From: Alphaproteobacteria bacterium
GTDB taxonomy: Bacteria > Pseudomonadota > Alphaproteobacteria > RF32 > CAG-239
Length of the DNA stretch: 64,000 nucleotides
Assembly (NCBI GenBank): GCA_045597005.1
Contig: JAZODJ010000026.1
Coordinates: forward strand, 60,263 to 124,262
Reading direction: 5' to 3'
Positions 17,881-49,197 of this stretch are shown piece by piece. Made by a program: the position numbers and the translations under genes. Position 1 is the stretch's first letter, and the number at the start of each line of letters is the position of its first letter. Below the pieces are notes generated by a model. It was not told where the DNA came from and ran no database searches. It worked only from the letters and a program-made list of their open reading frames with translations.

Positions 17881-20800
17881 TTAATTTAGTTTATTTAATG
17901 CTCTTGCCAAAACATAATAAAGACGTCCCATATCAGCTCCTGAAATAACAGCCATCAAAGCCGCCGAATGTTCATGAGACTTAGATTTTTCTACCAAAGT
18001 TTCAAATTCTTTCATATATGTATCAACTAATTTTCGTAATTCATCATTCTTTTCAAATTCTTTACGCAAAGCACTAATTTGTGAATTACTCATATTTTTG
18101 GCAACAGATCTGATAAATACTTGAGTATCACCATTATAAAACTTCTTCCATAAATCTTCTTCATCACGCGGTTTTAACAACCTGTTTACATCCACAGAAA
18201 CACTTTCTAAAACACTTATAATTTTTGCTGCATCTTTCAAAAATGTATCAACTTTAACATCTTTATATACCGTTGACAAACCTTTCATAACCTTTTCGGC
18301 TTTATTGGCCGTATCGGTAAGTGTTTTGGTTTGTATCGTTACAGTATCATTAAATCTAATACTTTCTTTAACAATATTTTGTCCTTGGGTTTCAAAAGCC
18401 TTTCCTGCATCCACTAAATCAGATAAACTCTTATTAACCTTATCTGCAGTATTGTCAGCCATTGCTGTCAAAGCTTGAGATTGTTTTACAAAAACATCTC
18501 CTGATGACAAAATACTATTAGAAATTCTTTCGGCATTAGCAGCCACTTCATTAAGCGTTGCTCTCAGCCTATCACCTGATTTTTCCATATGAGTAGCACT
18601 TAGCTTTACAGCATCGTCCATTTCTATTCCTAGTTTTTTCAAATCCTGTCCCAAACTTCTGACTTTATCATATGCATCATTAGCCCTGTCGGCCAATTTA
18701 TTAGATGTATCATTCAAAACAGTATTAAAACAATCTACTAACTTTTTGGTATCTTCTGATATTTGAACCATTTTATTGCTTTGAACTGAAATCAAATTAT
18801 TTATTTCAACCACTCCGGTAGATGTTTCTGCCGTAATAGTATTAAAACCGGCCAAATATTTTTCATATTCATTAAATACACCATTAATATTTTCAACAGA
18901 ATGAAATATTGTTGTATCTAAATCCTCACTACACTGATTCAAACGCAAACTTGTCTGATCAATATTTTTTATAGAATCTTTTGCTGCTTTACTAATTGCA
19001 TCACAAGCTTTCAATAATCTGTCACCCAAAACATCAAATTCATATGACAATTTTGTTGTTGTATCAAAAATATTACCGGTATTTTCTTTAAAATTAGTAT
19101 TAATTTCTTGCATTTTAGTCGCAACATCAACAGTTGCATCTGTCAAATACTTAAATTGTTGCGCAAATGATGCTTCTCCTAACCTTGCTTGCGTAGCTAA
19201 AGTATTAATTACTTCAGTAATATTATTCTTTTGCACTTCAAGCATGTGTGCAATACCTTCACCTTGTGAAATCATCTTTAAACCGGTGTTTTCCATATAT
19301 TTTGTTTGTTCATTAAATTTTTGCCATGTTGTCTCGTTTTCTTCCAACAAATCTTTTTGAATCTCTGACAAACGCGACGATGTATCTGAAATTTCTTGCA
19401 ATGTTTCTCCGGCACTAATTTTCATTGTTGAAATTGCAGTATTAAAATCATCCAAATTAAGCTTTACAACATCCACAACACTATTTAACTTAGTAATCGC
19501 ATCTTCAACAGTTTGTATTGTTAATTCGTGTTTAGCCGTCAAGAGTTTTTCAATTTCAGCTAATTCTTTAATTGATTTTTGTGAGTTTGCCACAACAGTT
19601 TCAGCTTTATGCCCTGTATCCTCCTCCAAAATTGTCAAACGAGCAAACAATTTATCGGCTCCCTCTTCTATTCCCGTCATCTGTTTTCTCAAAATTTCAG
19701 ACATTCGATTTGTATTTTCTGAAACTTTCTCACAATAAGTGTTAAAATCTGCTTCTTGTTGACGGAATAACAAATTAATCGTAGCAATCTTATTATCTAA
19801 ACCGGATACCGTATCTGTAATATATTCGGCAGCAACCTTTGATATATCATTAACCATATCGCTCTTAGCTGCAAAATCAGATATCGATTTATTCAAAACA
19901 GCTTCAGATGTTGTGGTAACTTCGTTAAGTTTCTTAATGTGTTTATCTAAATCATTACCTATTTTTTCGTTTTTATCTTCAATATTACTCGTCAATACTT
20001 CCATTGATTGCGACTGTTTAATTAAAATATTTTCAAATTGAGCAACTTTTGCCATTGTCCTGTTCGCTGAAGTATCAAACTGATTGGCCTGTTCAAGCAA
20101 ATTATCATTAATGGTTTTACTTTTATTAATGGCATCATTACATTGCGTTAACATCTTAGCTATATTTGATTTCAAAACTTCCAAAATATTAGCTGCATCT
20201 TTTTCTAAAGTCTCTGATGCTGTTGACAATTCATCAATTTGACGTTTCAATTCATTCTTAATATCTTCAACATGAGCAGCTGTATCGGTAATATGTTTTT
20301 GTTGTTGAGCTAAAGATGCTTCACTTATCTGACTTTGTGTAACAACTATCGATGATGCTTCAGTTAAACTGTTTGTATGTTTATTCATCAACGATGCAAC
20401 CTTATTTATACTCTCTATCGATTGAGCCGTTTGTACCATCATATTTTCGGTAGAAGCATTTATTCCTTTATCAACTTCCGCTAACTGATTCAAATTTCCT
20501 GCAATATTTTTTTGTAAAGTACTATAGCGATTATTCAAAACATCCGTAAGTCCAACAAGTTTATCAATACTATTACCACTTAACTTACCAAATTCATCAA
20601 CTTTCATATTCAAACTATTAATATATGATACAATATCATCATTAGCAATCGAAACCTTATCATCTAAATAGTTTACACTCTCTGCCAAAGATGTTTCCAC
20701 ACTTTGCATTGCTGTAACAGCTTTATCGGAAACGTTCGTAAGATTCGCTACTTGCATAGCAACGGAATCCTCCAAATTAGAGGTTCTGACCATAATCTTA

Positions 20801-22071
20801 TCCAACTCTTGAGCAATATTTTCACCGAACGCCGCAAATTTTTTATTAACTCCATCTGCCCGTTCATCCAAAACTTTTACAAAAGCGATAATATCTTTAT
20901 TATGCTTAGTCAACGACTCTTCAATCTTTTGAATTTGCAAATCCACTACATTATCAACATCATCAAAACCTTTTTTTATGTTATTATTGATAATACCAAC
21001 ATTAGATATTGCTGTTTTTGTAATATCTTCCGTTTTATCTTTCATCTCTTTGGTTGCTTTCTCTAAAACCAACGTTAATTTTTGACTGTGATTATGTAAC
21101 ACATCTTCCATATCCGCAATTTCTTTAGCCACGGTTGTCTTTGCTAAATCACAGTTTGTCATAGCTAAATCAGCCACCTGTTTCAGTGAATTTGCTTGTC
21201 CGACCAAAACTGTTTGCATTTCACCTAAAGTACTGTTTGTTTTTTCGGCAATAAGTTTTAAACTATCATTTGCTTTTACCATATCAATAGTTGAACCATT
21301 GGTTACTTCTCTTAACAAAACAGCAGTATCATTAATTTCCTTAACTTTTGGCAAAAGTTTATCAAATAATGTCATCAAAGACTTTTCAATACCGTTACTG
21401 TCATCCATAAACTCTTTGTTTAACTGAGCAAACCTTTGACTTGATACTTGTGTCTTATTCAACATATTATCAAAATTAGCCATTAAAAATTTAACACCAT
21501 CACTAAGTTCCACAATCGTTTTGGTTGAATAATTATCTAATTTTCCTACTAATTTGGCAAAATCATCCACGTTGTTTTTTATAGCATCTTTAATTTGTGA
21601 TGTTTGTTCATGAGCCAATTTTGAAACCTGTTGCAATTCAACAACTTGCGAACGGATTGCATCAGCCATTGCTTTCGCGGTCTGGGGAGCACCGTCTTCA
21701 GGATAAACCAGCTGATTCATATATGCGCGTAAAAACTTTGCCTCTTGCTTAAAAGATGTTCCGCGGTCAATATAAGCCATAACAACCCAAATAATTGCTA
21801 AAGGCAATGTAACACCAGCCAAAAAACCACCAAATTCATCAGGCATCATCAAAAACAAATTTGACCACCCAAAAAATTGAGTTATATAAATCAATACAAT
21901 AGCAAACCAAACAATACTTACACTAACCATCAACTTGTGTAAATTAGTATTTAGCCAAGATTGCTTTTCTTCTATTTCAATTGAATTTTGATAATTATTG
22001 TTTTCATTCATAAACTGCGGTAAAACTGTAACCTTACCGTTATCAGCTGTTTTATCAGACATCTGAAACAT
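17881..22071 (-). CDS. Giant membrane-anchored alpha-helical/coiled-coil protein of 1396 aa
   Basis: A short N-terminal cytoplasmic segment is followed by two hydrophobic helices (residues about 47-100). The remaining roughly 1250 aa are heptad-like and hydrophilic, rich in N/K/E/Q/L and without enzymatic motifs. Confidence 0.6.
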   Translation of the reverse strand: MFQMSDKTADNGKVTVLPQFMNENNNYQNSIEIEEKQSWLNTNLHKLMVSVSIVWFAIVLIYITQFFGWSNLFLMMPDEFGGFLAGVTLPLAIIWVVMAYIDRGTSFKQEAKFLRAYMNQLVYPEDGAPQTAKAMADAIRSQVVELQQVSKLAHEQTSQIKDAIKNNVDDFAKLVGKLDNYSTKTIVELSDGVKFLMANFDNMLNKTQVSSQRFAQLNKEFMDDSNGIEKSLMTLFDKLLPKVKEINDTAVLLREVTNGSTIDMVKANDSLKLIAEKTNSTLGEMQTVLVGQANSLKQVADLAMTNCDLAKTTVAKEIADMEDVLHNHSQKLTLVLEKATKEMKDKTEDITKTAISNVGIINNNIKKGFDDVDNVVDLQIQKIEESLTKHNKDIIAFVKVLDERADGVNKKFAAFGENIAQELDKIMVRTSNLEDSVAMQVANLTNVSDKAVTAMQSVETSLAESVNYLDDKVSIANDDIVSYINSLNMKVDEFGKLSGNSIDKLVGLTDVLNNRYSTLQKNIAGNLNQLAEVDKGINASTENMMVQTAQSIESINKVASLMNKHTNSLTEASSIVVTQSQISEASLAQQQKHITDTAAHVEDIKNELKRQIDELSTASETLEKDAANILEVLKSNIAKMLTQCNDAINKSKTINDNLLEQANQFDTSANRTMAKVAQFENILIKQSQSMEVLTSNIEDKNEKIGNDLDKHIKKLNEVTTTSEAVLNKSISDFAAKSDMVNDISKVAAEYITDTVSGLDNKIATINLLFRQQEADFNTYCEKVSENTNRMSEILRKQMTGIEEGADKLFARLTILEEDTGHKAETVVANSQKSIKELAEIEKLLTAKHELTIQTVEDAITKLNSVVDVVKLNLDDFNTAISTMKISAGETLQEISDTSSRLSEIQKDLLEENETTWQKFNEQTKYMENTGLKMISQGEGIAHMLEVQKNNITEVINTLATQARLGEASFAQQFKYLTDATVDVATKMQEINTNFKENTGNIFDTTTKLSYEFDVLGDRLLKACDAISKAAKDSIKNIDQTSLRLNQCSEDLDTTIFHSVENINGVFNEYEKYLAGFNTITAETSTGVVEINNLISVQSNKMVQISEDTKKLVDCFNTVLNDTSNKLADRANDAYDKVRSLGQDLKKLGIEMDDAVKLSATHMEKSGDRLRATLNEVAANAERISNSILSSGDVFVKQSQALTAMADNTADKVNKSLSDLVDAGKAFETQGQNIVKESIRFNDTVTIQTKTLTDTANKAEKVMKGLSTVYKDVKVDTFLKDAAKIISVLESVSVDVNRLLKPRDEEDLWKKFYNGDTQVFIRSVAKNMSNSQISALRKEFEKNDELRKLVDTYMKEFETLVEKSKSHEHSAALMAVISGADMGRLYYVLARALNKLN

Positions 22072-26771: not shown

Positions 26772-27311
26772 ATGGAACTAAAAGGTTCAAAAACCGAAAA
26801 AAACTTAATGGATGCTTTTGCAGGTGAATCTCAGGCTCGCAATAAATATACTTATTATGCATCAAAAGCCAAAAAAGAAGGTTATAATATTATAGCAGCC
26901 AAATTTGAAGAAACAGCCAACAACGAAAAAGAACATGCCAAAATTTGGTTCAAATTACTTCATGGTGGTGAAGTTCCCTCCACAATGGAAAACTTAAAAG
27001 ATGCTGCTGAAGGCGAAAACTACGAATGGACAGATATGTATGCTCGTATGGCTAAAGAAGCTCGCGAAGAAGGTTTTACCAAAATTGCCGCATTGTTTGA
27101 TATGGTAGGTAAAATCGAAAAAGGCCACGAAGAACGCTATCAAGCTTTGTTGAAATCACTAACCGAAGGTACCATCTTTAATCGTCCTACAAAAGTAATT
27201 TGGGAATGTGCAAACTGCGGTTGTCGCATTGAATCCGCCAATGCGCCTGCCAAATGCCCTGTTTGCGATCATCCGCAATCATATTTCTTTGAATTACAAG
27301 AACAATTCTAA
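26772..27311 (+). CDS. rbr: Rubrerythrin
   Basis: Ferritin-like di-iron E..H motifs plus a C-terminal rubredoxin-like CxxC...CxxC (CANCGC...CPVCDHP). Confidence 0.88.
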
Positions 27312-29691: not shown

Positions 29692-29719
29692 AAAAGCCTC
29701 TCTTTTCAGAGAGGCTTTT
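29692..29719. terminator. Rho-independent terminator after proS
   Basis: aagcctctc-ttttca-gagaggctt followed by a T-run. A second hairpin gggcggaaat/atttccgccc with a T-run lies at 29771-29800. Confidence 0.6.
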
Positions 29720-29816
29720 GTTTGATTAATAAAAAAAACTACGGCTAAGTTAGAAAAGAACTAAGACCATGGGCGGAAATGAATTTCCGCCCTTTTCCTT
29801 TTTTTATCATATTATA

Positions 29817-31268
29817 TTATTTCATATCTTTTTGGTTTTGACCTTGTTCTACATAGGTTTCAACCTGACGAGCTGCTTTTTTGGCCAAAGCTATACATCC
29901 CGGACCGGCAATACAACCGCCCTCACAACACATAACTTCAATCATATTATTTTCACACCCTTTTGTAGCATAGCGTTTCAATAATTTGATATTTTCTTTA
30001 CTCAAACCATCGATTCTTTCCGGTCTGAAATCAACCTTTCCTTCAACCAAATTACCAACCGCAGCGGCAACACCGCCGGACAGCGGATATTTACGTGCTT
30101 GTGCTGACGAAACTTTTGCAAATTCTGTCGGTTCACAATCACCGATTTCGATTCCGGCACCGACAAACATTGCTCCGATTTCTTCAAATGTCAAAACATA
30201 ATCAACATTAGGATCATATTCGGCCTCTGTACGTTTTGCCAAACAAGGACCTACAAACACGGAAATACAATCCGGTTGCTCTTTTTTAAGCATCTCAGCC
30301 GTATAATACATCGGCGTTTTCGTATTTGATACATACTCTTTTAATTCCGGAATATGAACTTGTGCCGCTCTGTAATAAGCCGGACAACAAGAAGTTGTCA
30401 TAAATTTAGCACCTTCTTCCATACGCTCAATAAATTCTGCCGATTCATTTGTTGATGTAATATCAGCACCGGCTGCAACCTCAACAACATCAGCAAATCC
30501 GGCTTTTTTCAAAGCTCCGACAACTTGTTTCAATTCAAACGGAAACTGTCCGACAACCGCAGGAGCAAGCATTGCCACGACTTTTTTGTCACTATTGTGT
30601 ATCAAATTTAATACATCAACTAATTGCGAACGTTCTACAATCGCTCCAAAAGGACAAGATTGCAAACATTTACCGCAAGAAATACAAGCTTCTTCATCAA
30701 TATGTTCAACCCCGTTCTCATCTTTTCTGATTGCACCTACAGGACAAGCTTCTTCACAAGGAACCGGCAACTTAACAATTGCATGATACGGACAGACTTC
30801 CATACATTTTCCGCAAGAAACACACATATCAGGATCTATATGAGATTTTCCGTTTACAAACGAAATAGCTTGCTTTGGACAATTCATAACACACGGACGA
30901 GCAAAACACCCTCTGCACGCATCAGTAACCATATATTGCGACTTAACACATGCCGAACATGCAATATCAATTACCGACAAACAACTTTTAGCATGATTTT
31001 GACGTTTTAACGCTTGTTTGCCATACTCACGCAACGTTGTAACCTCGCTAACTTCTTCTTGAGGTGTAATTCCCATAGCAGCCATAAGACGATACTTCAA
31101 AATGGCTCTATCTTTATAAATACAACAACGGCTTGAATCATAGTCCTTAGGACGCATCTCTATAGGAATCTCATCCGCTGTTTCAAAACGATCTTTATAA
31201 AAACTTTCAACAACCTTAACCAGAATTCTTGTGCGCATCTGGTTTGCATAATTCTTAGGTATTAACAA
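29817..31268 (-). CDS. [FeFe]-hydrogenase-like protein (HfsD-like) with N-terminal multi-[4Fe-4S] ferredoxin domains and an atypical H-cluster domain
   Basis: Several CxxCxxCxxxCP clusters. H-domain motifs TTSCCPAY (L1), GPCLAKRTE (L2) and EVMCCEGGCIAGPG (L3). L3 deviates from the canonical MACPGGC. Confidence 0.75.
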   Translation of the reverse strand: MLIPKNYANQMRTRILVKVVESFYKDRFETADEIPIEMRPKDYDSSRCCIYKDRAILKYRLMAAMGITPQEEVSEVTTLREYGKQALKRQNHAKSCLSVIDIACSACVKSQYMVTDACRGCFARPCVMNCPKQAISFVNGKSHIDPDMCVSCGKCMEVCPYHAIVKLPVPCEEACPVGAIRKDENGVEHIDEEACISCGKCLQSCPFGAIVERSQLVDVLNLIHNSDKKVVAMLAPAVVGQFPFELKQVVGALKKAGFADVVEVAAGADITSTNESAEFIERMEEGAKFMTTSCCPAYYRAAQVHIPELKEYVSNTKTPMYYTAEMLKKEQPDCISVFVGPCLAKRTEAEYDPNVDYVLTFEEIGAMFVGAGIEIGDCEPTEFAKVSSAQARKYPLSGGVAAAVGNLVEGKVDFRPERIDGLSKENIKLLKRYATKGCENNMIEVMCCEGGCIAGPGCIALAKKAARQVETYVEQGQNQKDMK

Positions 31269-31534
31269 TTCTCTTCTTCCTCTTTTGCAATTACTTCTCT
31301 GATCTTAGATACAACTTTTTCCAATGTTGCTTCTTCAATTAATTCTCCGTTAACTTCAACAAAAGGTCCTTTGTTATAACCACCTTTATTACAATGATTC
31401 ATACATCTGACCTCTGTAATTTCGATTTTATCAGCCAAATCTTCCGGAGCCGAAAACTCCAAAGCTTGAACTTGCGGCGCACCCATTACAAAACAAGCTG
31501 TTCCCGCACAAATTTTTACTTTTACTTTTTCCAT
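31262..31534 (-). CDS. Thioredoxin-like [2Fe-2S] ferredoxin, NuoE/HoxE-like
   Basis: Cys pattern C-x4-C...C-x3-C (CAGTAC, CMNHC). Overlaps the downstream gene by 7 nt. Confidence 0.65.
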   Translation of the reverse strand: MEKVKVKICAGTACFVMGAPQVQALEFSAPEDLADKIEITEVRCMNHCNKGGYNKGPFVEVNGELIEEATLEKVVSKIREVIAKEEEENC

Positions 31535-31553
31535 CTGCTTTTATCCTTTTTTA

Positions 31554-32732
31554 TTAAACATATTTAACGCTTATCTCTTTTAAGAATTTGCTTTGCAGAA
31601 TTCTAAAAATCTTTTTAACAATATTTCTGCGAATGTCAAGCTCCATCGGCAAATTTGGATCCTGATGAGCTTCATTTATTTTTGTTCCGACAACAAAATC
31701 AATTTTATCTGAATCCAACAACAATCTGGTCAATCTGGTTGCTGCGTTATCTTTGTCTTCGTCAAGACCTTCTTTCAACATCCGATAAACATCCGTCAGA
31801 GTAAGAATTCCTTCTGTTACCAAATCAATTCCTGGCATTATTGATGCCATAGGTATATTAGGATCAAAGGTTGTTTTATCCATTTCACACTTCAGACAAA
31901 GCTCTCTTTCAATAATATTTGCCGTAGTACCGCCGCAAATTGCCGTTTTTCCATCATAATAATCTATCATTTCAGCAATCTCTTTGTCTTTTTCCTCATC
32001 AAACGGCGGACCACTCAACAACAACAATTTTCTGGGCTTTCTAAAATAAACAACCGTACAACTTATATCATCTCCGGCCTTTCCTTCGGGTTCTTTTGAA
32101 AGTGCCTCATGAACTATAGCTTCAGCTAAATCTGTTGCAGAAATATGCGGATGACGTCTTATTTGATTTTCAATAAACTTCCACACACCTTCCCGTTGCC
32201 ACCCTAACGGATATTTAGGATTTCCCAATCCTGCTTGTGTAACTCCGTCAGACATAATTATGATTCTGTCTTCTTCTTGAGCTAAAAATTGGTAAACATT
32301 TATAATTCTATCTTTCCAATTTTCAGCCGTAATTTCATGATGAGCCGGACAATATTGCTGAAAATCTCTGACAATAAAACACCCCGGATTATCCATTTCA
32401 TAAATTCTTGTTTTTCCTTCGAGCATTGCATCAATTATTGAAAAAGTTGCATAGCTTATTTTTCTTACCTGACAAACAGGCAAGGCTTGCATCATCACTT
32501 CGGCCGAACGAACCAAATCCAAATCACTCTCAACAAACTTAATTGCCATTCTTGATGTCATTGAAGACAAAATATTTGCTTTTACTCCGCTTCCCAAACC
32601 ATCAGACAAAACTGTTATTATACGCTGCTCTTCCGGCAATTTTTTCGATGCTACCGAATCACCAAAACAATTCTCACTATATTTATGTTCTTGATGTGAG
32701 CCTATTTCAATATAAAGAGAATCGCTCATCAA
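31554..32732 (-). CDS. SpoIIE/PP2C-family serine phosphatase (HfsC-like) with an additional C-terminal domain
   Basis: PP2C motifs (VLSDGLGSG, MSDGVTQAG, GDDISCTV). Overlaps the hydS stop by 4 nt. Confidence 0.7.
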   Translation of the reverse strand: MMSDSLYIEIGSHQEHKYSENCFGDSVASKKLPEEQRIITVLSDGLGSGVKANILSSMTSRMAIKFVESDLDLVRSAEVMMQALPVCQVRKISYATFSIIDAMLEGKTRIYEMDNPGCFIVRDFQQYCPAHHEITAENWKDRIINVYQFLAQEEDRIIIMSDGVTQAGLGNPKYPLGWQREGVWKFIENQIRRHPHISATDLAEAIVHEALSKEPEGKAGDDISCTVVYFRKPRKLLLLSGPPFDEEKDKEIAEMIDYYDGKTAICGGTTANIIERELCLKCEMDKTTFDPNIPMASIMPGIDLVTEGILTLTDVYRMLKEGLDEDKDNAATRLTRLLLDSDKIDFVVGTKINEAHQDPNLPMELDIRRNIVKKIFRILQSKFLKEISVKYV

Positions 32733-34486
32733 CTATTCCTTCTGTTTCGAATCGTTATATTGGGTCTGTCTGTAACATCTCCGGCATAATCCTTTGCTAT
32801 AGAACGCAACAAAACCTCTGTTTCTGCCATATGTTCACCTAATGTACACGCAATTTGTTGTACCGTTGCCAAATTCTTTTCAATAACTTCTTTAGCCTTT
32901 TCTGCTATTTTTTCACGCTTAATTTCAACATTGGTAACATCTTCGATTACTCCGCCGACAACCTGTTTTTGCTCGATATTAAACACCATAACATCATAAA
33001 CTTTATCATTATGATGAGCATTTTCTCGTTTTACATCTTCACCCAAGTCCAACGAAGCAGAAAATAAATTTGTAAAACTTATAAAATCACGTAAATTAGC
33101 TCCGATTAAATTTCCTCTGTCATATATATCGGCATGTGCCTCATCATTCCAAAAAGCATCTAAAAATTGTTCATTATACTCTATAATTGAAAGCTTTGAA
33201 TTTACAATTACAATAGGAGACGGAATACATTTCAACAATGCATTGGCCTTGCGCTGAGCCTGATGTTTGATATGCGACACACACATATCAATTTCAGCCT
33301 TTCCATCCAAAATAGCCTTTGCAAAATTTCTACAATTATCATATCCGCAAGCATTACAATTTATCTCATCTTCTATTGTATGTTTACCTAAAATTTTCAA
33401 CACTCTTTTTATTTGTTCTTCATCATATATTTTACTTACAACAGGGGCATTCTTATATTCACAAGTTATATCAATTTCATTTTTTCTTTTTCCGGTATTT
33501 TTGGAAATTTTAACATCATTCAACACTCTGGCTCTTTTTTCAAATCCTGATTTATGACCTCTGGTGCAAGGTCCGTTTACACACCCTCCTTCACAAGCCA
33601 AACATTCTATAAACACCGGATTTTTAGGATGCGTCCCTTTAATATCAGATAATTCCCTTTGAATATTATCCAAACCTGTTAACTGCATCATATAAACGTG
33701 ATCGGTCTTTTTATAACGCTTTATTGTTTCAATCATTCCTCCTTCAATAGGATAATAGCGTCCCTCTTCCGCATTTTTATAAATAAAATCAATTCCTTTT
33801 CGAGGTTCAATATTATGATAATTAATACCGGCCTCACGGAACCATCTGCGCAAATCCCTAAAAGAGATACTTAAATTTAACAAATTACCGTTTCTATCTG
33901 CTTCAAACTTCTTTGCAATACAAGGACCTACAAAAACAATCTTTATATTTTTTCCCAGTTTTTCTCTCATTAATTTACAATGAGCCAACAAAGGCGATAC
34001 AACCGGTGTCAAATTTTCAGTCAACTCCGGCATATATTTATTAATATATTCCACAAAAGACGGACATGCCGTTGAAAGATATATGCCATTTGTTTTATCT
34101 GACAAAAAATCAGCCAAATGTGCCGAAACTTCTTCTGCCCCTACAGCTGTTTCACTAACACCTGAAAAACCTAACTTTTCAATTGCCGTAAGCAGTTGTT
34201 CTTTTGTAACATTATCAAATTCTGCTATCCATGAAGGCGCTAATGATACATAAATTTTTTCGCCGGTTGCCAACATATTTTTAGCTCTTGTAACATCATC
34301 TCTATCTTGTTTTGCTCTTACCGGACAAACTTTATAGCACGTACCGCAAGCAACGCATAATTCAGGCACTATTTGTGCCGAATTATCTTCAATTTTTATT
34401 GCTTTTACCGGACATCTTCTTACACACTTATAACAATCCTGACAATTATTTTTAACCGTAAACAACGGATGAATTCTGCTGGACAT
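32729..34486 (-). CDS. hydS: Putative sensory [FeFe]-hydrogenase (HydS/HfsB-like): two N-terminal [4Fe-4S] motifs, an H-cluster domain and a C-terminal PAS domain
   Basis: CxxCxxCxxxCP twice. L1 is STACPSF, with one Cys replaced as in HydS. L2 is GPCIAKKFE and L3 is ECLACEGGCVNGP. The C-terminal roughly 130 aa are PAS-like. Confidence 0.75.
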   Translation of the reverse strand: MSSRIHPLFTVKNNCQDCYKCVRRCPVKAIKIEDNSAQIVPELCVACGTCYKVCPVRAKQDRDDVTRAKNMLATGEKIYVSLAPSWIAEFDNVTKEQLLTAIEKLGFSGVSETAVGAEEVSAHLADFLSDKTNGIYLSTACPSFVEYINKYMPELTENLTPVVSPLLAHCKLMREKLGKNIKIVFVGPCIAKKFEADRNGNLLNLSISFRDLRRWFREAGINYHNIEPRKGIDFIYKNAEEGRYYPIEGGMIETIKRYKKTDHVYMMQLTGLDNIQRELSDIKGTHPKNPVFIECLACEGGCVNGPCTRGHKSGFEKRARVLNDVKISKNTGKRKNEIDITCEYKNAPVVSKIYDEEQIKRVLKILGKHTIEDEINCNACGYDNCRNFAKAILDGKAEIDMCVSHIKHQAQRKANALLKCIPSPIVIVNSKLSIIEYNEQFLDAFWNDEAHADIYDRGNLIGANLRDFISFTNLFSASLDLGEDVKRENAHHNDKVYDVMVFNIEQKQVVGGVIEDVTNVEIKREKIAEKAKEVIEKNLATVQQIACTLGEHMAETEVLLRSIAKDYAGDVTDRPNITIRNRRNS

Positions 34487-34492
34487 TGAAAC

Positions 34493-34735
34493 TTACCCCT
34501 TAAAAACTTTATCAAGAATATCTATAAGTGTTCCTGAATCAACATTATTATATTCAACCCCTTCAATCGTAAGATTAGGTCCCTTAGAACACAAATCACA
34601 ACATCTTAATCCGCTGAGTTCTATTTCTGCCTCTAAGTTATTATCTTTAAGATACTTTGATATAAGTTGTAAATTTTGGTTATTTCCTCTTGCAAAACAA
34701 GAACTCCCCATACAAATTTGTATCTTTTTAGACAT
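34493..34735 (-). CDS. Thioredoxin-like [2Fe-2S] ferredoxin (HfsA-like small subunit)
   Basis: CMGSSC...RCCDLC four-Cys pattern. 80 aa. Confidence 0.6.
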   Translation of the reverse strand: MSKKIQICMGSSCFARGNNQNLQLISKYLKDNNLEAEIELSGLRCCDLCSKGPNLTIEGVEYNNVDSGTLIDILDKVFKG

Positions 34736-34780
34736 TAAACCATCCTCCTCCGATTAAAGGGGTTATTTTACATAGTCATC

Positions 34781-37375
34781 CTATATTTTTCCGTTAAAAG
34801 CATCAAGATAAATTTTTCTTATATCTTCCATTAACGGATAAACAGGATTTGCACCGGTGCATTGATCATCAAAAGCATTCTCAACCAACCAATCCAGTTT
34901 GGCTTCAAAATCTTTTTTACTTATACCCCAGTCTTTAATAGATGCCGGAATATCAACTTCTTTTTTCAAAGCTTCAATAGCTTCAATTAAAGCATCGATT
35001 TTCTCATCTTCCGTTTTACCTTTCAAATTCAAATTATTTGCAATTTGAGCATAACGTCTTTTAGCTTCCGGCATTTTATATTGCGGGAAAATTGCCTGCT
35101 TGCGCGGACAATCGGTAGCATTATACTTAATAACCTGATTAATCAATAATGCATTAGCAATACCATGCGGAATATTAAATGCAGCCCCCAATTTATGTGC
35201 CATTGAATGACACAATCCCAAGAAAGAGTTTGCAAATGCCATACCGGCAATTGTAGCTGCGTGATGCATTTTCTCTCTTGCTTTCGGGTCATTAGCACCT
35301 TCTTTATATGCTCTCGGCAAATATCTGAATACTTGCTTAATGGCTTCTAAAGCTGTCGAATTAGTAAAGTTTGTAGCCATAACCGACACATAAGCTTCAA
35401 TAGCATGAACCAATGCGTCAATTCCACCTGCCGAAGTCAAACCTTTAGGCATATTATCAACAAAATTTGCATCAATAATAGCCATATTCGGTGTCAATGC
35501 ATAATCAGCCAACGCATATTTTACATGTGTTTCGTCATCTGTAATAACAGCAAAAGGTGTAACTTCAGATCCTGTTCCTGACGTCGTTGGAATAGCCACC
35601 ATAGAAGCCTTTTTACCCAATTCACCGATAGTACAAATACGTTTTCTGATGTCCATAAAACGCATTGCCACATCTTCAAATGCGATTTCCGGTTTTTCAT
35701 ATTTAAGCCACATAACCTTAGCAGCATCCATCGGAGAACCGCCACCGAATGAAATAAATACATCCGGCTTAAACACATTAATCATAACAAGAGCTTCTTC
35801 AATAGTAGCTATTGTCGGATCTGGTTTAACATCAAAGAAAATTTGATATTCAATATCCATATCTTCCAGTACATTGGTAATAGCATTAACCATACCGGAA
35901 TCAAATAAATATCTATCCGTAACAATAAAAGCCCTTTTCTTTCCTTCTAATTCTCTCAAAGCAACATCCGTTGCTCCGCGCTTAAAATAAATTTTTGGTG
36001 GAACTCTGAACCACAACATATTTTCTCTCCTCTCGGCAACGGTTTTATAGTTTAACAAATGTTTTACACCAACATTTTCACTCACTGAGTTGCCTCCCCA
36101 TGATCCGCAACCCAATGTTAATGACGGCTCCAATCTAAAGTTAAACAAATCTCCTATACCTCCTTGAGATGAAGGAGAGTTAATTAATAAACGACCTGTA
36201 GGCAATTTTGTCGCAAAATAATCAACTCGATCTTGTTTGCGAGTATCCGTATAAAGCACAGATGTATGCCCCATTCCGCCAAGTTCTACCAAAGCCAAAG
36301 CCTTATCAACAGCTTTTTCAAAATCATCAGCTTTATACAAAGTCAAAATCGGAGACAATTTTTCATGAGCAAACGGATTTGTTACATCAACTGATGTTTG
36401 TTCTGACAACAATACCTTTGAATATTCCGGAACGGAAATCCCTGCCATTTTAGCAATTTTTACTGCAGGTTGACCTACTATTTCCGGATTAACACCTTTC
36501 GGCGTTAATATAATTTTAGCCAACTTATCAGCTTCTTTTGCTGTTAACAAATACGCACCGCGACGCACAAATTCCTGCTTAACTTTTTCATAAACGGATT
36601 TAATGGCTATAACAGATTGTTCCGAAGCGCAAATCATTCCATTGTCAAAAGTCTTAGACATCAATATATACGATACAGCCATTTCCAAATCAGCTGTTTC
36701 ATCAATAACGGCCGGAGTATTTCCCGCACCGACACCTAATGCCGGTTTTCCTGATGAATATGCAGCCTTTACCATACCGGGACCGCCTGTCGCTAAAATT
36801 CCATGAACATCAGGATGTTTCATCAACATGTCTGTAAGCTCCAAAGACGGCTCATCAATCCATCCTATAATATTTTCCGGAGCACCTGCTTTAACAGCTG
36901 CTTCATAAACAACTTTAGCTGCTTCGATTGTTGATTTTTTAGCTCGTGGATGTGGTGAAAAAATAATTGCATTACGTGTCTTCAAACAAATAAGTGATTT
37001 AAATATAGCCGTAGATGTCGGATTTGTTGTCGGTATAACACCGGCAACGATTCCCAAAGGTTCTGCCACAATCTTAATTCCGTTTGTCTTATCAGATTTT
37101 ATAATACCGCATGTTTTTTCATTTTTGTATTTATTGTATATATATTCTGACGCAAAATGGTTTTTAATAATTTTATCTTCAACAACACCCATTCCCGTAT
37201 CACTCGCCGCCATTTTAGCTAAAGGAATACGAGCCTTATCTGCTGCTGTAGCCGCAGCCTTAAAAATACGATTAATTTTATCCTGTTCAAACGTTGCAAA
37301 AACTCTTTGAGCCTCTTTAACTTTTTTTATCAAGGCTTCCAAATCTTTTACTGTTTTAACTTCTTTATTTGCCAT
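34781..37375 (-). CDS. adhE: Bifunctional aldehyde/alcohol dehydrogenase AdhE
   Basis: N-terminal ALDH domain with the catalytic Cys region. C-terminal Fe-ADH domain (GGGSPMDAAK, HxxxH). 864 aa. Confidence 0.92.
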   Translation of the reverse strand: MANKEVKTVKDLEALIKKVKEAQRVFATFEQDKINRIFKAAATAADKARIPLAKMAASDTGMGVVEDKIIKNHFASEYIYNKYKNEKTCGIIKSDKTNGIKIVAEPLGIVAGVIPTTNPTSTAIFKSLICLKTRNAIIFSPHPRAKKSTIEAAKVVYEAAVKAGAPENIIGWIDEPSLELTDMLMKHPDVHGILATGGPGMVKAAYSSGKPALGVGAGNTPAVIDETADLEMAVSYILMSKTFDNGMICASEQSVIAIKSVYEKVKQEFVRRGAYLLTAKEADKLAKIILTPKGVNPEIVGQPAVKIAKMAGISVPEYSKVLLSEQTSVDVTNPFAHEKLSPILTLYKADDFEKAVDKALALVELGGMGHTSVLYTDTRKQDRVDYFATKLPTGRLLINSPSSQGGIGDLFNFRLEPSLTLGCGSWGGNSVSENVGVKHLLNYKTVAERRENMLWFRVPPKIYFKRGATDVALRELEGKKRAFIVTDRYLFDSGMVNAITNVLEDMDIEYQIFFDVKPDPTIATIEEALVMINVFKPDVFISFGGGSPMDAAKVMWLKYEKPEIAFEDVAMRFMDIRKRICTIGELGKKASMVAIPTTSGTGSEVTPFAVITDDETHVKYALADYALTPNMAIIDANFVDNMPKGLTSAGGIDALVHAIEAYVSVMATNFTNSTALEAIKQVFRYLPRAYKEGANDPKAREKMHHAATIAGMAFANSFLGLCHSMAHKLGAAFNIPHGIANALLINQVIKYNATDCPRKQAIFPQYKMPEAKRRYAQIANNLNLKGKTEDEKIDALIEAIEALKKEVDIPASIKDWGISKKDFEAKLDWLVENAFDDQCTGANPVYPLMEDIRKIYLDAFNGKI

Positions 37376-37434
37376 TCTTAGACCTCATATAAAAATTTAC
37401 CACAACATTAAATTATACATTTCAATTATTAAAA

Positions 37435-37465
37435 AAGGTTTACCATACACGGTAAACCTTTTTTA
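37435..37465. terminator. Bidirectional terminator between the ABC exporter gene and the adhE promoter region
   Basis: aggtttacc-atacac-ggtaaacct followed by a T-run. Confidence 0.6.
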
Positions 37466-37471
37466 GATAGA

Positions 37472-39262
37472 TTATTTTAGTTGCGCTTGATACAAAGACG
37501 CATAAACAGAATTTTTCTTTTTCAATAATTCATCATGCGACCCCAATTCAACCAATTCACCATAATTAATAACAGCTATCTTATCCGCATTTCTGACTGT
37601 AGACAAGCGATGCGCTATAATAAACACAGTTCTGTCTTTCATCAGATTATCAACGGCTTTCTGAACAACAGCCTCAGATTTATTATCTAATGCCGATGTA
37701 GCTTCATCCAAAATAACAATCGGAGCGTTTTTTAAAAAGGCTCTTGCAATAGCAATTCTTTGTTTTTGCCCACCGGAAAGCAAAGCTCCTCTTTCCCCAA
37801 TCTGCGTATCTAAACCTTTATCAAGACTGGCAATAAACTCATCCAAACAAGCATTTTTAATTGCCGCATTCACTTCTTTTTCTGTGGCATTATGATTTCC
37901 CAACATTATATTATCACGAATCGTACCGGAAAACAAAAAATTATCTTGAAAAACAACTGCAATATTATCCCTGACAGAATCTAGATCCAAATCACGAACA
38001 TCAACACCATCAAATAACAAAGCACCAGATTTTACATCATAAAACCTTGGCAACAAATTTACCATCGTAGTTTTTCCGCCACCAGAATTTCCGACAAAAG
38101 CAACCGTTTCTCCTTTTTTGATTTTCAAATTTATATTTTTCAAAACAGGTTTATCAGCATCATACTCAAAACAAACATCCTTATATTCTATTTCCTTCTT
38201 CACTTTGGACATTTTTTGAGCTTTCTTTTTATTCACAATTTCAGGTTTACTGTCCAATAATTCAAACACTCTTTCCATCGCCATCAAAGCCGTTTGAACA
38301 GCATTATAATTATTACCGATAGCTTTAATCGGAGTATAAAGCATAATTAATGCAGCAATAAACGAAACAAAATTACCGGGAGTTATTGCATCTGTTACAA
38401 TTAAATAACTTCCCAACCAAATAACCGCCGCAATACCTATTGAAACAATAAAGTGCATCATCGGAGACATAATTCCTGTTCGTTGCGTCATTTTGATTCC
38501 AAGCTTAAAACATTGTTTTAGCGTACTGTCAAATTTATGTGCCTGATAATCATACAAATTATATGATGTAACAATTCTATTACCGCTAAAAGTTTCATTA
38601 AAATGAGTAACAACAGCCGCTCCGGAAAAAACTGTCTTATCCATAATCGATTTAATTTTTTTCTTTACCGTTGTTAACGGATATAAAGCCCCAAGCAAAA
38701 CAACAACAGCAACAATAGCCAATTGCCATGAATTGTAGAACAACACCGCAATCAAAGATAATGATGAAAATAATCTGGTTGTAAAAAGTTTCAAATTAGA
38801 AAGTAAACCGTTACAACTGGTATCAACATCTTTACTGAAACGATAAACTATTTCTCCGGAATTACGCTTATCAAAAAAAGAAGCGTCAAATCGCAAAAGC
38901 TTCTTAAACAAATCAGACTTCAATCCCATCGAAACCTTTTGTCCCACCCAGGTATTCAAATAGGTGGCTGAATAATTAAAAATACTTTGAATCAAAGTAA
39001 ACAATATTATTAAAAGAGGAATATATGCCGTATTATAATTGCTATTGCTTTCAATCATAATAACGTCCATATAAGGTTTTAACGCCCATGCAATCACTGC
39101 ATCCATAGCACCGATAGGAATAGTAACCAATATAGCTAAAAGCGCCCGCCCCCAATATGGTTTTACATATTTCCACATTTTGGAATAATTTTTTACCATT
39201 TGACCATTTTTAATATTGTTTCTGATTTTCTTAAACATAAGTTCACCGTTAAAAATTAACAA
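37472..39262 (-). CDS. ABC exporter with fused permease and ATPase, MsbA/lipid-A-exporter-like
   Basis: Six-TM domain followed by Walker A (GNSGGGKTT), LSGGQKQR and Walker B (ILDEATSALD). Confidence 0.8.
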   Translation of the reverse strand: MLIFNGELMFKKIRNNIKNGQMVKNYSKMWKYVKPYWGRALLAILVTIPIGAMDAVIAWALKPYMDVIMIESNSNYNTAYIPLLIILFTLIQSIFNYSATYLNTWVGQKVSMGLKSDLFKKLLRFDASFFDKRNSGEIVYRFSKDVDTSCNGLLSNLKLFTTRLFSSLSLIAVLFYNSWQLAIVAVVVLLGALYPLTTVKKKIKSIMDKTVFSGAAVVTHFNETFSGNRIVTSYNLYDYQAHKFDSTLKQCFKLGIKMTQRTGIMSPMMHFIVSIGIAAVIWLGSYLIVTDAITPGNFVSFIAALIMLYTPIKAIGNNYNAVQTALMAMERVFELLDSKPEIVNKKKAQKMSKVKKEIEYKDVCFEYDADKPVLKNINLKIKKGETVAFVGNSGGGKTTMVNLLPRFYDVKSGALLFDGVDVRDLDLDSVRDNIAVVFQDNFLFSGTIRDNIMLGNHNATEKEVNAAIKNACLDEFIASLDKGLDTQIGERGALLSGGQKQRIAIARAFLKNAPIVILDEATSALDNKSEAVVQKAVDNLMKDRTVFIIAHRLSTVRNADKIAVINYGELVELGSHDELLKKKNSVYASLYQAQLK

Positions 39263-39326
39263 TCAACTCGCAGTTTATGGTAAAAATGTTTCAAATGCAA
39301 ATGCTTTCGAAAAGATATTCCCGAAC

Positions 39327-40709
39327 TTATAAACAAATTTTAAAAATAGTATATTTATCAACACCCGATCTTACAAAAATTTTAGCACCTATAGCCAAAG
39401 CCGTTTTTTTAACAATATTTAACCCTATTCCGATACCGCCTTTTTTACGATCATCTTTTTCATTACATTGATAAAAAGCATCAAAAATATGTTTTTTTGC
39501 ACATTCATTTATTCCTATGCCATCATCAATAACCCAAAAACAATTTTCATCATTACCTATAACTATTTTTGTCTTTGCATATTTAACAGCATTACTCAAC
39601 AAATTACGCACAATACGTTCAAGTAAAAAAGTATCCTGATAAACAATTGTTGTTTTTAACCTGAATATTATATTTTTTTCTGTAGTTTGTTTATACTCAT
39701 CAGCAATCTTTCTCAATAATTCAGCCAAATCAAAATACTGAGGATCAAACATTGTCTCTCCAGAATCAAACTTTGCAAAATCCAACAAATTATTGAGCAT
39801 TGTTGATAAATTTTTACTCAACAACAATATCTTGTCAGCTATTTCAGCATATTTTGAAATCGGTGCCGTCTTTAATCCTTCCGCAAATAAATTTATTGCT
39901 TGCAACGGTTGTCTTATATCATGACCGGCTTGTGCCAAAAAGTAAGTTTTTGCCAAATTAGCCTCTTCAGCTTTTACTTTTGCAGTTGTTAATTCAGCTT
40001 GAATTTTAATTAACTCACTCACATCTTGAAAAACACCGGCAATTTTTTCTTCTCCGTTTTCATAAATAATTCCAGCCATAAAACGACAATATTTTAAGAT
40101 ATTATTTTTACTGACAATTCTTACTTGTCCTTGTATATCATTCTTTTTATTAACCAATTCTTTTATTTTTTGTTTATAGATATACAAATCATCTTTATGT
40201 ATTAATTTGCGAATCAAATTTGAATGATATGATCCTTTATCTTTGTCTATTCCGAATAGCTTATACATCTCATCGGACCAATAAAATTGCTTTTTTATTA
40301 AATCTAACTCCCAATAACCTGTTTTAGATATTTTCTCAACAAATTTTATTCTCTGACTATTTACTTGTAACAAATGCGCTAATTGCCTTTTTTCGGAAAT
40401 ATCATCCAAAACCACCCAAACACTTTTATCTTTCGGATAAACATACACCAGATAAAATCTCTGTTGAAATTTCCAATAGAAATGGTGAGGATGATTATGA
40501 TAAAAAGCAATTTCCATATTTTTTAACAAGACTTCTGCATCATCAAGAGACAGAATATCGCTAATTTTCTTTGCTGTCACAATATTGCTGAACACACAAT
40601 TTGCCTTTTGATTAAAAAACAAAATCATACCGGATTTTGTAAGTTCCAGCATTACAGAATTTGAAATATCAGCAATAGTTTTTGATGTTTTATCTTTAAT
40701 ACAACTCAT
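39327..40709 (-). CDS. Sensor histidine kinase (PAS-HisKA-HATPase). It is cytoplasmic, and no response regulator lies adjacent.
   Basis: HisKA H-box (FLAQAGHDIRQPL) and HATPase_c N/G boxes (VIDDGIGI, GGIGIGL). N-terminal PAS-like repeats. Confidence 0.75.
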   Translation of the reverse strand: MSCIKDKTSKTIADISNSVMLELTKSGMILFFNQKANCVFSNIVTAKKISDILSLDDAEVLLKNMEIAFYHNHPHHFYWKFQQRFYLVYVYPKDKSVWVVLDDISEKRQLAHLLQVNSQRIKFVEKISKTGYWELDLIKKQFYWSDEMYKLFGIDKDKGSYHSNLIRKLIHKDDLYIYKQKIKELVNKKNDIQGQVRIVSKNNILKYCRFMAGIIYENGEEKIAGVFQDVSELIKIQAELTTAKVKAEEANLAKTYFLAQAGHDIRQPLQAINLFAEGLKTAPISKYAEIADKILLLSKNLSTMLNNLLDFAKFDSGETMFDPQYFDLAELLRKIADEYKQTTEKNIIFRLKTTIVYQDTFLLERIVRNLLSNAVKYAKTKIVIGNDENCFWVIDDGIGINECAKKHIFDAFYQCNEKDDRKKGGIGIGLNIVKKTALAIGAKIFVRSGVDKYTIFKICL

Positions 40710-48387: not shown

Positions 48388-49197
48388 TTAATTCAAACTT
48401 ACGTCTTTAGAATATCCTAAATCAACCAATCGTTGATTGATATTTATTCCGTCATATACGCATATTCCCGTCGCTGTAGCATCTTGAGTATATGCAACAA
48501 TTCGACACTTAATCGTTTTCCCTGCAATTTCATTCTGCAAATATTGCATAGCGGCGATACCTTCTTGTGATGACGGCTCTGCATATATACCATATAAAAA
48601 CAAAACTTTGGCTCCGACTTTTATTTCATTTGCATTAACAATCTCTGCAATATCTGTCAAATCTTCAGGATTCTCCATATATATCAATCCGAGATTATCA
48701 TCCCGTCTAAACTTAAAAATATCATTTCTTACTAATTTATCTGTTCGTTCCAATGTAGCCTTAACATCAACAGGAATATCTTGTGCTGCCTCAAAAACTT
48801 TTCGGGTTAAAGCTCGCGGAGAATCATAAGAAACCATCTCATCTTTTCCGGGTTTTTTATCAACGGATTTTACATTAACATTTTGTCCGACGATATCAGA
48901 CAATTTTTGTTCTGTATTATCTTTCAAAGGCATAATCAAGCCATTTTCAACAGTCTTTTGTGCCTTTTCATAATAAGCTACAATATGTTTTTTATACCAC
49001 TCCGGTATATCCGAAAATTCAACCCCATTATATGAAGGTAATGCAATCAATGCAACCAACACAACGATAACTCCGACAAAAAACCACAAAGGATGAATAA
49101 AAGGATATAAAATAAATCTGAAAAATTTAGTAGCCCACTTTACCCAACCGGTACTGGGACCTAACTTGTCATCATTTTTCTTTCTACGACCGAACAT
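48388..49197 (-). CDS. Membrane-anchored SNase-like (thermonuclease-fold) protein. The catalytic motif appears degenerate.
   Basis: N-terminal TM. C-terminal ...LYGIYAEPSSQEG...CRIVAYTQDATATGICVYDGININQRLVDLGY resembles the SNc fold, but the GIDAPE motif is altered. Confidence 0.45.
   Translation of the reverse strand: MFGRRKKNDDKLGPSTGWVKWATKFFRFILYPFIHPLWFFVGVIVVLVALIALPSYNGVEFSDIPEWYKKHIVAYYEKAQKTVENGLIMPLKDNTEQKLSDIVGQNVNVKSVDKKPGKDEMVSYDSPRALTRKVFEAAQDIPVDVKATLERTDKLVRNDIFKFRRDDNLGLIYMENPEDLTDIAEIVNANEIKVGAKVLFLYGIYAEPSSQEGIAAMQYLQNEIAGKTIKCRIVAYTQDATATGICVYDGININQRLVDLGYSKDVSLN

Follow-up and report, generated by a model that had tools for sequence, protein, structure and literature searches.

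The subject of this analysis is a block of six genes in a 64,000-nucleotide (nt) stretch of contig JAZODJ010000026.1 (assembly GCA_045597005.1), assigned to an alphaproteobacterium of the RF32 lineage; this whole stretch is referred to here as the window. A sequence-only reading of the window had drawn attention to six consecutive minus-strand genes, separated by 45 nt or less and with two overlaps of stop and start codons, in which a gene for a bifunctional dehydrogenase (adhE) stands at the head of genes for two hydrogenase-like proteins, two small ferredoxins and a phosphatase. The six open reading frames (ORFs) are confirmed at 29817-37375 in the order adhE, fdx1, hydS, PP2C, fdx2, hydB, and the gaps between them, from adhE to hydB, are 45, 6, -4 (-1 with a later PP2C start), 19 and -7 nt. 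The block and its boundaries are listed below, with protein lengths in amino acids (aa); the upstream hairpin and the candidate promoter element are read from sequence.

37435-37460, minus strand: upstream hairpin resembling an intrinsic terminator, AAGGTTTACC-GTGTAT-GGTAAACCTT followed by a T-run; closes the gene for an ABC exporter and marks the upstream boundary of the unit
37412-37419, minus strand: candidate extended -10 promoter element, TGTATAAT, approximately 37 nt 5' of the adhE ATG
34781-37375, minus strand: adhE, bifunctional acetaldehyde-CoA/alcohol dehydrogenase, 864 aa
34736-34780, minus strand: adhE-fdx1 spacer of 45 nt, with a GGAGG ribosome-binding site and without a terminator
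34493-34735, minus strand: fdx1, thioredoxin-like [2Fe-2S] ferredoxin, 80 aa
32729-34486, minus strand: hydS (hfsB-like), putative sensory [FeFe]-hydrogenase of group C3, 585 aa
31554-32729, minus strand: SpoIIE/PP2C Ser/Thr phosphatase, 391 aa from the ATG at 32729 (392 aa if taken as 31554-32732)
31262-31534, minus strand: fdx2, thioredoxin-like [2Fe-2S] ferredoxin, 90 aa, its stop codon overlapping the hydB start
29817-31268, minus strand: hydB (hfsD/hydA2-like), group B [FeFe]-hydrogenase of catalytic type, 483 aa
29692-29792, no strand assigned: downstream hairpin pair (29771-29792 and a bidirectional 11-bp stem at 29692-29719) in the interval between hydB and the convergent gene proS; downstream boundary

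The identities proposed for the six products agree with profile searches in every case. AdhE scored 1388 bits against NF010378 (cutoff 951) and also matched PF00171, PF00465 and PF25137, the fused aldehyde dehydrogenase and iron-containing alcohol dehydrogenase domains exceeding the equivalog cutoff. Both small ferredoxins match PF01257 (fdx1 with 33 bits and fdx2 with 29 bits, cutoff 24.8) and share a Cx4C...Cx3C pattern, formed by C8-x4-C13 and C45-x3-C49 in fdx1 and by C9-x4-C14 and C44-x3-C48 in fdx2. The last gene had been described as encoding a second hydrogenase-like protein; a hydrogenase it is, but the wording was too modest, as the 483-aa product scored 541 bits (cutoff 450) against TIGR04105, the FeFe_hydrog_B1 family of monomeric group B1 enzymes, and thus qualifies as a complete group B enzyme of catalytic type. 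The catalytic motifs TSCCP, PCxxK (PCLAK) and ExMxCxxGCxxG (EVMCCEGGC) are intact. In the HydDB classification group B is ferredoxin-linked and 'colonic-type', and group C3 is that of the phosphatase-linked putative sensors (PMC5037454). By analogy with this class description, and with the account of Welsh (2025), HydB would be expected to evolve H2 in a ferredoxin-dependent manner.

The putative sensor, HydS, is laid out as two [4Fe-4S] clusters, an H-domain, a 4-Cys cluster (C377, C380, C385 and C402), a PAS domain (approximately residues 425-516) and a long C-terminal helix. The H-domain matches PF02906 (E = 6e-48) and the C-terminal 4-Cys motif matches PF04060. The four H-cluster cysteines (C141, C189, C298 and C302) are all present and invariant. 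When compared with CpI, C299 is replaced by A140 (in STACPS), M353 by G187 (GPC) and M497 by L296 (ECLAC). Among sensory group C enzymes, Ala and Gly are found at these positions in approximately 43% and 51% respectively (PMC10055695), and on its residues HydS matches the substitution pattern of these enzymes. The PAS domain, which the sequence-only reading had ascribed to this protein together with the H-domain, is below the Pfam threshold in the window HydS itself (E = 0.008). At the same position, however, 42 of 60 full-length homologues match PAS_8 and 20 of 60 match PAS, and an AlphaFold model of HydS (pLDDT, the predicted local distance difference test score, of 89) shows the canonical unit of two strands, helices and three strands at 425-516 followed by the long helix. 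The homologues and the model together support the PAS domain. With its four H-cluster cysteines, lost second-sphere residues, 4-Cys motif plus PAS domain and linkage to a phosphatase, HydS has the features that distinguish group C3. Its domain layout from the two [4Fe-4S] clusters to the PAS domain is common to TmHydS and TamHydS, which HydDB places in the same group, and all three proteins have Ala for the proton-transfer Cys, Gly for M353 and a residue other than Met for M497. The last of these is Ser in TmHydS but Leu in the window protein, which is known from sequence alone. A sequence search of the PDB returned no solved HydS structure.

The phosphatase has a PP2C domain, as had been proposed (PF07228, 40 bits, cutoff 25), with the PP2C fold and invariant metal-binding ligands (the conserved aspartates). 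Its ATG at 32729 shares 1 nt with the stop codon of hydS (TGATG) and is the start used by gene callers on identical metagenome contigs. Beyond the catalytic fold lies a C-terminal alpha/beta domain (approximately residues 235-391) that is conserved, unannotated and Rossmann-like. The sequence-only reading held that the partner of the phosphatase is not encoded in the locus, and no kinase or other partner is found there. All-against-all clustering of the ORFs neighbouring the 85 loci of the synteny survey described below likewise revealed no kinase, STAS or anti-sigma family that recurs.

The hairpins that had been said to flank the block are present at 37435-37460 and 29692-29719, and a further hairpin lies at 29771-29792. 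Across the region there are 7 terminator-like sites as against a shuffle expectation of 5.1 +/- 2.1, a number not above expectation, and the placement of the hairpins at gene ends is their sole informative aspect. The scans for terminators and promoters inside the block are uninformative because their counts are at or below the shuffle expectation. Within the adhE-fdx1 spacer no terminator was detected (fold z-score 0.01, no T-run) and the scan found no promoter-like site. The TGTATAAT element is partly conserved in two relatives of the window (L012 and L016; loci are designated here by L and a number) and is a candidate promoter element of adhE. It was missed by a two-hexamer scan because it has no good -35 element. 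The upstream hairpin is kept in two of three relatives and is missing in L015. Directly 5' of adhE, at 37472-40709 of the window, are genes for the ABC exporter (596 aa) and for a PAS-HisKA-HATPase histidine kinase (460 aa), an arrangement that is kept throughout the window's clade (upstream regions of L012, L015 and L016); no cognate response regulator for this kinase was seen nearby.

An identical HydS is encoded on at least nine metagenome contigs. The 120 best HydS homologues share 58% identity or more with it, the small number with names being 'MAG: Alphaproteobacteria bacterium' (MAG, metagenome-assembled genome) or 'Azospirillum sp.', and the samples from which homologues derive include rumen and gut metagenomes. 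The flanking window genes dusB, trkA, hflX, metG and trkH agree with an alphaproteobacterial placement. These data support the view, already taken in the sequence-only reading, that the bearer is an uncultured host-associated alphaproteobacterium. Relatives whose HydS is 80-85% identical keep the order histidine kinase, ABC exporter, adhE, ferredoxin, hydS, PP2C, ferredoxin, hydB, with adhE-ferredoxin spacers of 23-51 nt, while their downstream flanks differ. The cluster is thus more than a chance arrangement, because the six-gene order is kept in species-level relatives and on at least nine independent contigs. In two loci with the identical HydS (L005 and L103, 5347-5703 in each) hydB is followed not by proS but by a 118-aa acetate-kinase fragment and then by a large opposite-strand gene, which could be a strain-level rearrangement or an assembly chimera.

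A sister alphaproteobacterial clade, in which HydS is 59-62% identical to that of the window and which includes the 1.89-Mb genome GCA_047014165.1, has the five-gene module without a neighbouring adhE. In this clade (L007/L008 3673-7570 in GCA_047014165.1) a divergent gene for a hybrid histidine kinase/receiver protein lies 5' of the module, as do genes for two proteins with weak EAL-domain matches, and these may represent an alternative signalling context.

Beyond these clades the module is widespread. An exhaustive HMMER search with HydS returned 863 clusters at the 50% identity level with E < 1e-30; the top matches are mostly full-length and 30-48% identical, and those that are named belong to Sedimentisphaerales and Lentisphaerota. 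In a scan of species-representative genomes the best 80 loci came from Lentisphaeria/Victivallales, Planctomycetota, Gastranaerophilales/Melainabacteria, Elusimicrobia, Treponema and other spirochaetes, Bacteroidales/Marinilabiliales, Acidobacteriota, Desulfovibrio, Opitutia and others, with Clostridiales accounting for one of the 80. Synteny was surveyed by tblastn with the six window proteins over 85 non-redundant loci. The phosphatase gene lies directly 3' of hydS in 80 of these and a small ferredoxin gene directly 5' of it in 74, and the complete order ferredoxin-hydS-PP2C-ferredoxin-hydB is found in 40 loci from many phyla. Recurrent neighbours are Rex (14 loci), AdhE (11) and HydABC-type NuoE/NuoF subunits (10), together with HydE/F/G maturases.

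Several variants of this arrangement were seen in the survey. The rex gene, the commonest of the additional neighbours (L025, L028, L047, L063, L024, L039, L083, L093, L095, L043, L045, L052, L059 and L098:4351-4953), is found in one of three places: 5' of the module, in the interval between it and adhE, or ahead of an adjoining HydABC operon. Several Victivallales, Cloacimonetes and Acidobacteriota loci have a rex-HydABC operon directly 5' of ferredoxin-hydS-PP2C without a group B enzyme. Labilibaculum has two tandem hydS-PP2C pairs, and in two Bacteroidetes MAGs a group B hydrogenase gene lies 5' of hydS (variants L088 9001-15351, L096 8494-12865 and L097 1176-5523).

The sequence-only reading took the view that such modules are not normally in one transcription unit with adhE. 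This does not hold, since adhE is adjacent to the module and co-oriented with it in 11 of the 85 loci, and the seven of these outside the window's clade are polyphyletic in the HydS tree; the adjacency occurs in at least seven other unrelated lineages in addition to a co-regulated cluster of Ruminococcus albus 7 discussed below. The order adhE-rex-ferredoxin-hydS-PP2C-ferredoxin-hydB is found in Gastranaerophilales (L028) and in RUG11253 (L047), and RGIG4844 (L025) has adhE-rex-ferredoxin-hydS-PP2C-ferredoxin with hydB not detected. In RUG12906 (L049) and Opitutia (L077) adhE lies directly 5' of the module, in Planctomycetaceae (L023) it is approximately 0.9 kb 5' of it, and in RUG14252 (L063) the order is ferredoxin-hydS-PP2C-ferredoxin-hydB-adhE-rex, with adhE-rex immediately 3' of hydB. 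The gut and rumen MAG loci L028, L047, L025 and L063 have the five-gene module with the content and order of the window (apart from the undetected hydB of L025) and with adhE attached, but carry rex between or after these genes where the window's clade has only a 45-nt spacer and no rex. No publication on these four loci, which are unannotated MAG sequence, was found.

The closest characterised counterpart is on the R. albus 7 plasmid pRUMAL01, where the order is rex, adhE, a 'phosphotransferase' gene, two [2Fe-2S] ferredoxin genes, hydS, a SpoIIE phosphatase gene and hydA2, all co-oriented and with gaps of at most approximately 20 nt. The primary R. albus paper is that of Zheng et al. (2014), cited here by way of papers that discuss it. 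This cluster and that of the window have in common adhE, [2Fe-2S] ferredoxins of small size, a HydS with a PAS domain, a SpoIIE-type PP2C phosphatase in which the additional C-terminal domain is also shared, and a ferredoxin-type hydrogenase of approximately 480 aa. Full-length alignments were obtained for all five shared proteins, with an identity of 60% for AdhE and low identities of 31% for HydS, 30.5% for PP2C and 37% for HydA2, and in each case the genes are contiguous, co-oriented and separated by tiny gaps. This is direct evidence for the homology to the HydS/HfsB, HfsC and HydA2/HfsD systems that had been proposed for the window. There are also differences. The R. albus cluster includes rex and the 'phosphotransferase' kinase gene, neither of which is in the window; both of its ferredoxin genes are 5' of hydS, whereas one of those in the window is 5' of hydB; and it is carried on a Firmicutes megaplasmid, whereas the window locus belongs to the chromosome of an alphaproteobacterial MAG lineage. 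It has been reported that the eight genes are co-regulated, with expression reduced 111-fold when R. albus is co-cultured with an H2 consumer, and that they encode a ferredoxin-only hydrogenase, a bifunctional alcohol/aldehyde dehydrogenase and elements for regulation, among them a group C hydrogenase (Greening et al., 2019, PMC6776011). According to the same authors, the genes for the sensor, the hydrogenase and the alcohol dehydrogenase are co-transcribed.

A second known system, hfsABCD of Thermoanaerobacterium saccharolyticum and T. thermosaccharolyticum (ACU11594-97), can be likened to the window by its published descriptions. As in the window, a PAS-containing hydrogenase, a Ser phosphatase and a ferredoxin-linked hydrogenase are encoded, here named HfsB, HfsC and HfsD respectively. 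HfsA aligns poorly and resembles hydrogenases in part, according to its description, and its equivalence to the 80-aa ferredoxin is doubtful. The system is genetically tied to adhE expression and ethanol yield, but it is described as a four-gene operon without adhE. Deletion of hfsA or hfsB in Thermoanaerobacterium results in more adhE transcript and a greater ethanol yield, an effect that needs hfsC and hfsD (PMC5707799). These genetic data lend functional backing to the adhE link that is independent of R. albus.

The union of adhE with a HydS module is therefore already known from R. albus, and it recurs in many unrelated gut and rumen lineages. The statement in the sequence-only reading that no description was known appears to be borne out for this lineage, as no account of the cluster in the gut alphaproteobacterial lineage (RF32 or 'Azospirillum sp. 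CAG') was found in the searchable literature, but not for the arrangement itself, which has been described elsewhere. A study of the HydABC-like and other [FeFe]-hydrogenases of these bacteria does not mention the sensor, the phosphatase or the alcohol dehydrogenase in its text (Degli Esposti, 2016). The locus does not represent a new kind of system, and its modest novelty lies in the lineage and in a minimal version without rex or the kinase.

As regards the origin of the block, the closest HydS proteins outside the Alphaproteobacteria are from Lentisphaerota, Planctomycetota and Gastranaerophilales (44-47% identity), and those of R. albus, Monoglobus and Acetoanaerobium are approximately 31% identical. 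In a neighbour-joining tree of HydS the two alphaproteobacterial clades are sisters and lie among sequences from the Planctomycetota-Verrucomicrobiota-Chlamydiota group and Melainabacteria, with R. albus on a long branch. Three other MAGs named 'Alphaproteobacteria' or 'proteobacterium' (L055, L060 and L063) fall elsewhere in the tree, and transfers must therefore have happened at depth. The closest AdhE proteins outside the window's clade are 76-81% identical and are encoded by stand-alone genes, once with rex 3', and the matching clusters are named as alphaproteobacterial MAGs. The GC content at third codon positions (GC3) of the four large genes of the block is 0.24-0.28, compared with 0.265 +/- 0.045 for the genes of the window, and comparison of GC and GC3 with the window gave no compositional evidence for horizontal transfer of the block. 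Given the sister clade, the stand-alone AdhE relatives and the typical GC3, the simplest history is one in which a resident module and a native adhE were juxtaposed. On this account ferredoxin-hydS-PP2C-ferredoxin-hydB would be an old resident module of gut alphaproteobacteria, joined by adhE in the genus-level clade of the window.

This bears on the suggestion of the sequence-only reading that the whole block is a Firmicutes-type module which a reduced alphaproteobacterium probably acquired horizontally. The examples that have been characterised (R. albus, Thermoanaerobacterium and C. thermocellum) are indeed Firmicutes, the R. albus copy is on a mobilizable megaplasmid, and the HydS tree ignores phylum boundaries, which implies transfer at some depth. 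The module is, however, spread across many phyla, with Clostridiales so scarce among the best loci; the window HydS is far closer to the non-Firmicutes proteins than to those of R. albus, Monoglobus and Acetoanaerobium; and the sister relationship of the two alphaproteobacterial clades, one of them without adhE, the stand-alone alphaproteobacterial relatives of AdhE and the typical composition of the locus all argue for linkage of adhE within the lineage. Nothing in the sequences indicates a Firmicutes donor of the module, and recent transfer of the block as the source of the linkage is scarcely credible.

We consider it likely that the block is one operon which combines two fermentative electron sinks with their presumed regulator and is the equivalent of the R. 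albus 7 cluster. We infer that the six genes are co-transcribed in this organism and that the operon would package a 'high-H2' redox solution. AdhE would re-oxidise NADH, two NADH being consumed for each acetyl-CoA reduced to ethanol, and the group B hydrogenase, probably with a small [2Fe-2S] partner, would re-oxidise reduced ferredoxin with the release of H2. By textbook stoichiometry, glucose could then yield acetate, ethanol, 2 CO2 and 2 H2. The regulatory arm would consist of HydS, its own [2Fe-2S] ferredoxin and PP2C. The low-activity H-cluster of HydS may be reduced at high H2, such that its redox state would serve as a readout of H2 or ferredoxin pressure, and the signal would then travel, via the C-terminal 4-Cys cluster and PAS domain, to PP2C, with which HydS would interact and which is translationally coupled to it. 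PP2C would in turn act on a target encoded outside the locus. As to the direction of regulation, the functional and evolutionary counterpart would be the R. albus 7 cluster, which is expressed at high H2, when ethanol and ferredoxin-only H2 are formed, and is repressed once a partner removes H2.

Several observations weigh against this interpretation. In vivo sensing of H2 has been shown for no HydS, and according to a 2024 review it is still not known how sensory [FeFe]-hydrogenases signal. The linkage to adhE is not obligatory, because the module of the sister clade stands without an adjacent adhE. In tblastn searches of the 64-kb window with Rex and the R. albus kinase nothing was found below E 0.4, and 97 loci compared with the kinase contained no homologue of it either. 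No Rex box lies near adhE. If up to two mismatches are allowed, TTGTKAAN4TTMACAA is matched at only three sites, all distant from the locus, which is no more than chance would give. Because rex, the kinase and a Rex box are all absent from the window, the output pathway of R. albus is not simply transferable to it. A weak internal promoter in the block is possible, and the unity of the transcript is here something that we infer. Lastly, in L015 the upstream ABC-exporter gene stops 25 nt 5' of adhE without a hairpin, so that some strains may have a larger transcription unit.

An explanation that differs in the role given to HydS is that this protein is not chiefly a sensor but serves as one subunit in a multimeric, ferredoxin-linked hydrogenase of Hfs type (Fd1-HydS-Fd2-HydB) that is tuned by PP2C, with adhE co-expressed only for the stoichiometric balance of ethanol and H2. 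It draws on the facts that hfsABCD was first identified as the main H2-evolving hydrogenase of Thermoanaerobacterium, that a small [2Fe-2S] protein resembling the C-terminal domain of NuoE/HydC is encoded 5' of each hydrogenase gene, that HydS keeps every ligand of the H-cluster and that TmHydS still has measurable activity. Against this, HydS lacks the proton-transfer Cys and both second-sphere Met residues, which is the low-activity sensory pattern, and it has a PAS domain and a phosphatase gene next to it in nearly all loci; approximately half of the loci have HydS-PP2C without HydB alongside, or beside a HydABC-type enzyme, and deletion of hfsB raised hydrogenase activity (PMC5707799). We regard a role as hydrogenase subunit as unlikely. 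A different departure keeps HydS as a sensor and takes AdhE itself, or adhE transcription, as the direct general output of HydS-PP2C, the alphaproteobacterial version without rex and kinase being minimal and PP2C acting, by means of its C-terminal domain, directly on AdhE or the hydrogenase and not by way of a transcription factor. This is suggested because adhE, often with rex, has been joined independently to the module in at least six phyla, but as a general account it seems distinctly unlikely. It could also be argued that adhE came to lie beside the module by neutral rearrangement and is transcribed and regulated alone, the five downstream genes forming a separate unit. In the sister clade and in the nearest AdhE relatives adhE is indeed elsewhere, and the 45-nt spacer is the widest gap in the block. 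However, this spacer contains neither a terminator nor a promoter-like site, the arrangement is kept with similarly short spacers in several species of the clade, and the same adjacency is found in at least seven other lineages and in R. albus, where co-regulation has been measured. Our own rough estimate for a single-copy gene to come to lie within a few genes of the module by chance is approximately 0.5% per lineage as against approximately 9% observed outside the window's clade. Neutral adjacency is accordingly held to be very unlikely, and a single operon under a presumed H2-responsive regulator is preferred.

The choice between H2 and ethanol as electron sink bears on interspecies hydrogen transfer, ruminant methane and gut gas balance. 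The locus provides comparative support for a mode of control of AdhE and a ferredoxin-hydrogenase by HydS-PP2C, an idea that comes from R. albus and Thermoanaerobacterium, and the survey makes the R. albus observation a general pattern, with the linkage recurring across phyla including a Gram-negative alphaproteobacterial gut lineage. There may also be practical value in a minimal six-gene version that could be expressed heterologously. If AdhE were after all the direct output, the compact operon would be a handy system in which to solve signal transmission by sensory [FeFe]-hydrogenases.

Elsewhere in the window, four ORFs had no Pfam match at E <= 1e-5 (17881-22071, 9884-11254, 51088-52284 and 48388-49197, encoding 1396, 456, 398 and 269 aa respectively), and no ORF of the window is richer in GC than that of 398 aa (0.425). 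A rubrerythrin gene (26772-27311) lies beside a gene for a Fur/PerR-type regulator (L001 17175-18118), with a cold-shock protein gene nearby. The rubrerythrin and Fur/PerR neighbours fit with an oxygen-sensitive anaerobic lifestyle of the host.

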